This document shows positions 3,156 through 3,236 of a stretch of 44,071 bases of DNA, piece after piece (within the stretch, counting starts at the first letter, position 1; every line of letters begins with the position of its first letter). Source of the DNA: Escherichia phage vB_EcoS-UDS3lw; sequence record PQ658967.1. One strand, given 5' to 3'. The position numbers and the translations under genes were made by a program. Below the pieces are notes generated by a model. It saw only the letters and a list, made by a program, of their open reading frames with translations, was not told where the DNA came from and did no database searches.

Positions 3156-3236
3156 ATGGCACGTAAAGATATTTGGGTATTAGCGATCTGGACCACCGCG
3201 GCTTTTATCGGCATGGTTATTTGCGAATTGATATAG
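3156..3236 (+). CDS. small hydrophobic peptide (26 aa, MARKDIWVLAIWTTAAFIGMVICELI)
   Basis: Strong GGAGGAG SD 8 nt upstream of ATG; single predicted TM helix; hand-translated. Confidence 0.35.
   Translation: MARKDIWVLAIWTTAAFIGMVICELI

Follow-up and report, generated by a model that had tools for sequence, protein, structure and literature searches.

Our analysis indicates that a 26-codon open reading frame (ORF) in the genome of Escherichia phage vB_EcoS-UDS3lw (PQ658967.1) is probably a genuine accessory gene of Dhillonvirus phages, translated into what would be a mini-protein of the inner membrane. It very probably represents a new, genus-restricted example of a well-known kind, the tiny hydrophobic phage accessory proteins that escape annotation, which is a modest rather than a surprising finding. 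Nevertheless, more than 100 sequenced coliphage genomes thereby gain a conserved gene that their records leave unannotated or mis-annotate.

The mini-ORF and its genomic setting

The window, i.e. the whole stretch of 44,071 nt that was analysed, is 99% identical in the region of the mini-ORF to Escherichia phages vb_EcoS_bov22_1, bov11C2 and others. The region matches 156 phage records, essentially all of them labelled or classified as Dhillonvirus (HK578/SO-1-like E. coli siphophages), and by this similarity the window is assigned to a Dhillonvirus, that is, to an HK578-like E. coli siphophage. The mini-ORF and the features around it are arranged as follows:

1867-2877: lysis cassette, with two holin genes (PHROG matches phrog_2359 and phrog_2508) and, after them, an endolysin gene (Phage_lysozyme family match)
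2893-3060: gene for a 55-aa protein (phrog_11068), between the endolysin gene and the intergenic stretch of the mini-ORF
3067-3098, plus strand: intrinsic terminator closing the lysis-gene transcript (stem-loop 3067-3088 with 8 pairs, 6 of them G-C, and the T-rich tail TTTATTGCTT)
3097-3126, plus strand: putative sigma70-type promoter P1, by sequence pattern (TTGACT from 3097, 18 nt, CATACT to 3126)
3104-3112, plus strand: first copy of the GCRACCAAY motif, reading GCAACCAAY, between the -35 and -10 of P1
3127-3135, plus strand: second copy of the motif, directly past the -10 of P1 and over the expected transcription start
3141-3147, plus strand: Shine-Dalgarno sequence (SD) GGAGGAG, exactly 8 nt before the ATG of the mini-ORF
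3156-3236, plus strand: mini-gene of 26 codons and a TAG stop, encoding MARKDIWVLAIWTTAAFIGMVICELI, a predicted single-pass N-in membrane helix
3250-3275, no strand assigned: inverted repeat GGACCGTGG / CCACGGTCC around TGGTATATT (3256-3264), extended -10-like; putative promoter P2, serving the phosphoesterase and packaging genes
3298-4440, plus strand: metallophosphoesterase gene (380 aa, 'DNA repair exonuclease', phrog_704), the cistron downstream of the mini-ORF
Beyond the metallophosphoesterase gene: terminase and portal genes, identified by position and by annotation in related records

Several of the neighbouring genes deserve a remark of their own. No spanin gene was seen adjoining the two holin-like genes and the endolysin gene of the lysis cassette, and the protein of a 95-aa ORF at 1526-1813 (phrog_2531, no assigned function) has a hydrophobic N-terminus. 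In some relatives a protein of ~137 aa annotated with a Big_2 (Ig-like) domain replaces the 55-aa phrog_11068 protein; other records (HK1, phiEco273) label this replacement 'major tail protein', apparently in error. Weak matches to the helix-turn-helix models GerE, HTH_7 and HTH_28 (E 0.03-0.06) are found for the first ~45 residues of the metallophosphoesterase (3298-3440), and one record names the protein 'helix-turn-helix domain-containing'; it could be a DNA-binding nuclease encoded beside the terminase genes.

The mini-ORF begins with an ATG at 3156-3158 and runs through 26 sense codons to a TAG at 3234-3236. A first-pass annotation of this DNA had described a GGAGGAG 8 nt upstream of a 26-codon ATG ORF, preceded by a strong terminator and a promoter-like sequence with two motif copies, and all of these elements were recovered. 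Judged from its SD, the mini-ORF would be expected to bind ribosomes strongly. The encoded peptide consists of MARKD, 18 hydrophobic residues (positions 6-23) and ELI, and thereby falls within the size and hydrophobicity range of small single-pass membrane proteins (fewer than about 50 aa, one membrane-spanning stretch). Its best 19-residue Kyte-Doolittle mean is 2.13. The window has 212 ATG ORFs of 22-40 codons, and only 0.5% of these, the mini-ORF itself counted, score as high. No paralogue of the mini-ORF was found in the window. The combination of a strong SD, an ATG and 26-60 codons occurs in three ORFs of the window, compared with 4.6 +/- 2.3 in first-order Markov shuffles, so that an SD, an ATG and a short ORF, taken from the window sequence alone, are not beyond chance. 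It is the comparative evidence from relatives that lifts the mini-ORF above this level.

Upstream of the mini-ORF, the terminator is conserved in all relatives, with changes confined to its loop. Among 22 distinct relatives with the order terminator, P1 and mini-ORF, P1 has an invariant -35, a -10 that reads CATACT or TATACT and a variable spacer, a pattern that would be expected of a working promoter. P1 is also present without any ORF in SM_S22 and in locus L015. The motif that accompanies P1 is widespread: the 9-mer GCRACCAAY has 22 copies in the window against 2.3 expected, a number reached in none of 100 shuffles. Most copies lie directly 3' of -10-like hexamers (TATAGT, TATAAT, CATACT), often in pairs, and a palindrome is formed once, at 29363-29382. 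Examples are found at 40-48(-), 3104, 3127, 10362, 10376, 26468, 29363(+)/29374(-), 31030, 31047, 33986, 33998, 40710(-), 43523/43577/43612(-) and 44021. The motif has the appearance of a promoter or operator element that would serve a DNA-binding protein throughout the phage genome. A scan of 2800-3500 against Rfam gave sub-threshold matches alone, all on the terminator; among them is Trp_leader with 22.5 bits against a gathering score of 41, which therefore sits upstream of the mini-ORF.

Downstream, the perfect 9-bp inverted repeat at 3250-3275 starts 14 nt past the stop of the mini-ORF. Every Dhillonvirus form read, with or without the cassette, keeps its core CCGTG(G/A)TATATTG nearly intact, with one CCATG variant. 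A conserved RNA hairpin or switch at this site was considered and rejected for lack of covariation: in a covariation test of the arms 80.8% of the cells are paired, compared with 79.3% in shuffles, the covariation score was reached by 86 of 500 shuffles, and the arms drift without compensation. No T run follows the hairpin. The element probably serves the phosphoesterase and packaging genes as a promoter at the DNA level, and it may include an operator. Between 3236 and 3298 no terminator-like site was found, and the P1 transcript is therefore expected to continue into these genes. The fold of this putative transcript over 3133-3310 is no more stable than that of shuffled sequences (z=-0.63), and the SD of the mini-ORF, behind a predicted leader of ~23 nt, is unpaired in the centroid fold.

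Conservation and selection within the genus

A tblastn search with the peptide found it at full length in 112 phage records with 73-100% identity, including two chance matches to ssRNA phages. All other carriers are Dhillonvirus and amount to ~110 of the 156 records. The mini-gene is absent from ~28% of the Dhillonvirus records and must consequently be dispensable. Conservation in relatives, which the first-pass annotation had named as a check, is thus present in the form of a retained frame, ATG and SD. The ATG is kept in all of the 30 relatives read and the frame stays open for 26-29 codons, with the exception of SO-1. Where the mini-ORF is the first cistron, the SD keeps its AGGAG core at 8-9 nt from the ATG and the bases of the spacer vary; where another ORF precedes it, the SD is reduced to GGAG or GAG. 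Apart from SO-1, no carrier has an insertion or deletion in the 78 nt of the mini-ORF, while the flanking spacers have them. The C-terminal end of the peptide and the position of its stop (26-29 aa) are the most variable parts.

The distribution of substitutions points in the same direction. Among 21 distinct DNA versions, variable sites at codon positions 1, 2 and 3 number 8, 6 and 18. The third position is thus variable in 18 of 26 codons, compared with 14 of the 52 sites at the other two positions (Fisher p=5e-4); these counts are not fully independent, as the carrier sequences are related by descent. The ratio pN/pS in the same 21 versions is 0.20 in the frame of the mini-ORF; the two remaining sense frames give 0.91 and 2.97, and the three antisense frames 0.86, 0.40 and 4.68. 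When the mini-ORF is set against codons 1-100 of the phosphoesterase in one set of 29 genomes, pS is 0.28 for the mini-ORF and 0.35 for the enzyme, and the silent sites of the mini-ORF accordingly drift at a rate like that of a real gene. The corresponding pN values are 0.062 and 0.019. With a pN/pS of 0.055 in the phosphoesterase, the ratio in the mini-ORF of 0.2 is about four times higher; amino-acid replacements in the mini-ORF are held back, though less strictly than in the enzyme. As judged from these substitutions, purifying selection is shown to act on the amino acids of the mini-ORF, and in this frame only.

Those replacements that do occur are conservative (A2T, K4N, W7Y, T13S, T14A, V21A and L25V, as well as L/M exchanges). 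Thirteen positions, including R3, D5, C23 and E24, are invariant among 14 aligned variants of the peptide; when the set is widened to 20 variants, I6 and F17 each show one change as well. A helical periodicity of the variable residues, sought for a lipid-facing side, was not significant (p=0.59), and for this reason no interaction face can be named.

Two phages depart from the common form of the ORF. In the Sodalis phage SO-1 (L008 1404-1500), 45 nt have been lost between two CCGCCGCA repeats, which truncates the ORF, and the frame continues to 31 codons. In phage HH3 (P0002) the stop codon is lost, which results in a 52-aa read-through into the start region of the phosphoesterase.

Most tblastn matches carry no annotated feature at the site of the mini-ORF, and in some records a different ORF from the one preferred here is annotated. 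Antisense ORFs were called in JL1 and CEC_Kaz_2018, but this frame is interrupted by stops in six relatives and does not keep its start; its intermediate pN/pS results from wobble positions that it has in common with the mini-ORF. A 35-aa ORF in the +2 frame, annotated in 101114BS4 and Bas84, is broken in three relatives and has a pN/pS near 3. CHD5UKE2 and Dru_SM5 are annotated with a 47-aa version that starts from an upstream TTG; this TTG falls inside the -35 of P1, and in-frame stops are found 1-13 codons upstream of the ATG in many relatives. All three calls were rejected. A search of a large protein database with the 47-aa form returned only copies from Dhillonvirus or Caudoviricetes, some of them called as 29-aa genes.

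Outside the genus, searches of Pfam, PHROG, NCBIfam (which includes known type I toxins and small proteins), PADLOC and PDB sequences with the peptide or its alignment gave no match, and the same holds for a peptide search of plasmids. At the DNA level, no copy of the 211-bp region was found in 5,426 complete E. coli genomes, and an exact degenerate pattern found none in 185,579 GTDB genomes. The degenerate pattern did find five further metagenome contigs, of which the full-length ones are ~45 kb long, like Dhillonvirus genomes. By these searches the mini-gene is shown to be restricted to the genus Dhillonvirus. No mention of the mini-ORF was found in Dhillonvirus papers; the known small proteins of the genus, anti-Tmn (ORF35) and Ksap1 (74 aa), are products of different genes located elsewhere.

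An optional slot and competing explanations

The interval between the lysis genes and the phosphoesterase gene exists in several forms. In its empty form (Envy, phiEco273, Over9000) it holds the terminator and the TGGTATATT element alone, and in SM_S22 and L015 P1 is present but no ORF. The window and most phages possess P1 and the mini-ORF. In a further form P1 is followed by a 75-aa ORF (phrog_16851), which runs into the mini-ORF so that its stop overlaps codons 3-4; an ORF precedes the mini-ORF in L006, L012 and L080 (the 75-aa one at ~1130-1360 in L006 and L012). In the last form a 57-aa ORF overlaps the end of the mini-ORF, and in several relatives it increases the distance from the mini-ORF to the hairpin by ~170 nt. 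ORFs stand between the mini-ORF and the phosphoesterase gene in L007, L011, L075, L081 and L085. The sequence of the mini-ORF is kept whatever flanks it, and it hence behaves as a portable cistron, as expected of an operon gene. These forms show the slot to be modular, a swap-in/swap-out site between P1 and the second promoter-like element. The 57-aa ORF has no family match (L007, L011 ~1260-1440), and the slot of KarlBarth (L081 580-959) encodes a further protein of 70 aa (phrog_20931, no assigned function).

Among the alternatives to an accessory membrane mini-protein, the one that survives best is itself a sub-case of it with another mode of action: the product may be a pore-forming or depolarising toxic peptide, either type I toxin-like or a lysis modulator of the holin/antiholin type, whose helices would oligomerise in the inner membrane and collapse the proton-motive force, and which would thereby serve host shut-off, the timing of lysis or exclusion. 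We regard this as improbable. It is true that the mini-ORF adjoins the holin-holin-endolysin cassette and has a strong SD, and that in size and composition the peptide resembles type I toxins such as IbsC with 19 aa (PMC12648545). The members of this class, TisB and ShoB among them, are hydrophobic and 19-35 aa long, and their single transmembrane helix leaves only very short tails (PMC12648545). Type I toxin mRNAs, however, have long structured leaders that sequester the SD, while the predicted leader of the mini-gene spans only ~23 nt and the fold of 3133-3310 has a z of -0.63. There is also no sign of a gene for an antisense RNA: no minus-strand promoter-like site was detected at 3060-3300 by a simple consensus scan, which could miss a weak promoter. 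No toxin or holin model of NCBIfam, Pfam or PHROG matched. Regarding lysis in particular, the strong terminator and a promoter of its own part the mini-ORF from the lysis genes, and the mini-gene is missing from ~28% of the genus, so that lysis is independent of it. A holin or antiholin would be recognized by a family match and by membership in the lysis transcription unit, and the mini-ORF has neither. Given the separation by terminator and promoter, the patchy presence and the missing holin match, a role within the lysis pathway becomes less likely.

The first-pass annotation had left open whether the ORF encodes a small membrane protein or a regulatory leader peptide. The former is favoured by selection on the peptide, the retained ATG and SD and the hydrophobic core; the latter, in which translation itself would control the phosphoesterase and packaging genes, e.g. 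by melting the 3250-3275 hairpin or by blocking Rho, is very unlikely. Its attraction is that a short ORF opens a transcript reaching the next genes and ends with a stop 14 nt ahead of a perfect 9-bp inverted repeat. Yet it is the amino acids that are selected (pN/pS 0.2), while the C-terminus and the stop are variable (26-29 aa), and in relatives either the 57-aa ORF intervenes (~170 nt) or the 75-aa ORF precedes, so that the position relative to the phosphoesterase gene is not fixed. The hairpin, with neither T run nor covariation, does not have the form of an attenuator, and the downstream genes work in phages without the cassette. For these reasons, namely a selected peptide with a variable end, a varying distance, no terminator or covarying structure and downstream genes that are expressed without the ORF, we reject the leader-peptide reading.

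That the open frame is incidental, a chance ORF in conserved promoter or operator DNA, could be argued from the frequency at which such ORFs are expected in a single sequence, from the failure of most annotators to call it and from the promoter-like elements and dispersed motif of the region, but it is the least credible explanation in view of a three-base substitution periodicity specific to this frame, the absence of indels from 78 nt in all carriers save SO-1 (unlike the flanking spacers), the conservation of SD and ATG on either side of 8-9 variable nt, and a hydrophobic core kept through conservative T/S, V/A, L/M and W/Y changes.

Possible action in the membrane and relevance

If the mini-gene indeed encodes an accessory membrane mini-protein, its expression and action may be envisaged as follows. 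P1, which bears two copies of GCAACCAAY, would drive the mini-gene and give rise to a transcript with a leader of ~23 nt and a strong SD. The product would be approximately one transmembrane helix, with a basic N-terminus (R3, K/N4), ~18 hydrophobic residues and an acidic C-terminal end with the invariant C23-E24, and according to the positive-inside rule it would insert into the inner membrane with its N-terminus in and its C-terminus out. As there is no soluble domain, its action would be confined to the membrane, where it may pack against a membrane protein or associate with itself, the latter being the mode exemplified by type I toxins (PMC12648545). Transcription would run on, unterminated, into the phosphoesterase and packaging genes.

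Bacteria possess proteins of a comparable kind: KdpF (29 aa), AcrZ (49 aa) and MgrB are single-helix inner-membrane proteins that bind larger membrane proteins (PMC12648545). The mini-protein is like them in its size class, in being nearly all one transmembrane helix with no soluble domain and in belonging to a type that annotation typically misses. It differs from them in having no sequence similarity and a gene that belongs to a virulent phage rather than to the host.

A second comparison is provided by the genus Kagunavirus, whose phosphoesterase is ~75% identical to the Dhillonvirus homologue. In ~1/3 of the Kagunavirus-like loci read (L017 1190-1460 and ~17 others, e.g. L018, L019, L022, L023), the slot contains a promoter-like sequence and a gene of 59-63 aa for Imm_superinfect (PF14373, E=9e-14; phrog_1039 'immunity to superinfection'), which GenBank records annotate as a superinfection immunity protein. 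The two genes are alike in occupying the same slot, in the combination of a promoter-like sequence with a small membrane-protein gene and in their patchy presence. However, Imm_superinfect is longer, with two hydrophobic stretches and a conserved motif, and homology was rejected: the Pfam model gave no match to the peptide at E<=1, and hhalign against the Kagunavirus protein alignment returned a probability of 0.4%. This comparison shows only that the slot serves small accessory membrane proteins. By analogy with it, we tentatively suggest that the mini-protein may exclude superinfecting phages or act in some other way on a protein of the host inner membrane, and consider this possible rather than probable.

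A more daring proposal, to which we attach little confidence, is that the helix acts as a phage-made intramembrane inhibitor, docking on a host inner-membrane protein needed by incoming phage DNA or by a membrane-bound defence system, and that it was possibly born de novo between two promoters within one genus. Were it true, the mini-protein would be among the smallest superinfection-exclusion or counter-defence proteins known to us. As an exclusion or host-targeting factor it would also provide a very compact probe of its inner-membrane target.

Phage morons are self-contained insertions of a promoter and a gene between conserved genes. The mini-gene resembles them in its own promoter, in a presence/absence polymorphism among close relatives, in its position between conserved blocks and in its predicted membrane-protein product. 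On the other hand, it has no downstream terminator of its own, and its promoter contains the dispersed motif of the phage and occurs without the gene. Because the carrier phages are described as lytic in Dhillonvirus papers, there is no expression from a prophage either, as there would be in morons.

The carriers of the mini-gene include phages that are well used in the laboratory, namely HK578, SECphi4 and, from the BASEL collection, Bas15-18, Bas83 and Bas84. Tiny genes are missed by pipelines, and the cost is visible at this locus, where antisense, wrong-frame or 47-aa calls stand instead. A natural pair with and without the mini-gene exists in SM_A8, which carries it, and SM_S22, which has the promoter alone. 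These phages can be rebuilt synthetically (PMC11846954), and with such natural pairs at hand the function of the mini-gene would be cheap to test.

Two of the records that match the region call for comment. OQ221563.1 is labelled 'Acinetobacter phage NJ01' but shares 95% identity with this region of an E. coli phage, so that its host label looks doubtful. PQ843332.1 (P-GXEC-L2P5) contains the region twice and, with 88.6 kb, has about double the usual genome length; it may be a concatenated assembly.
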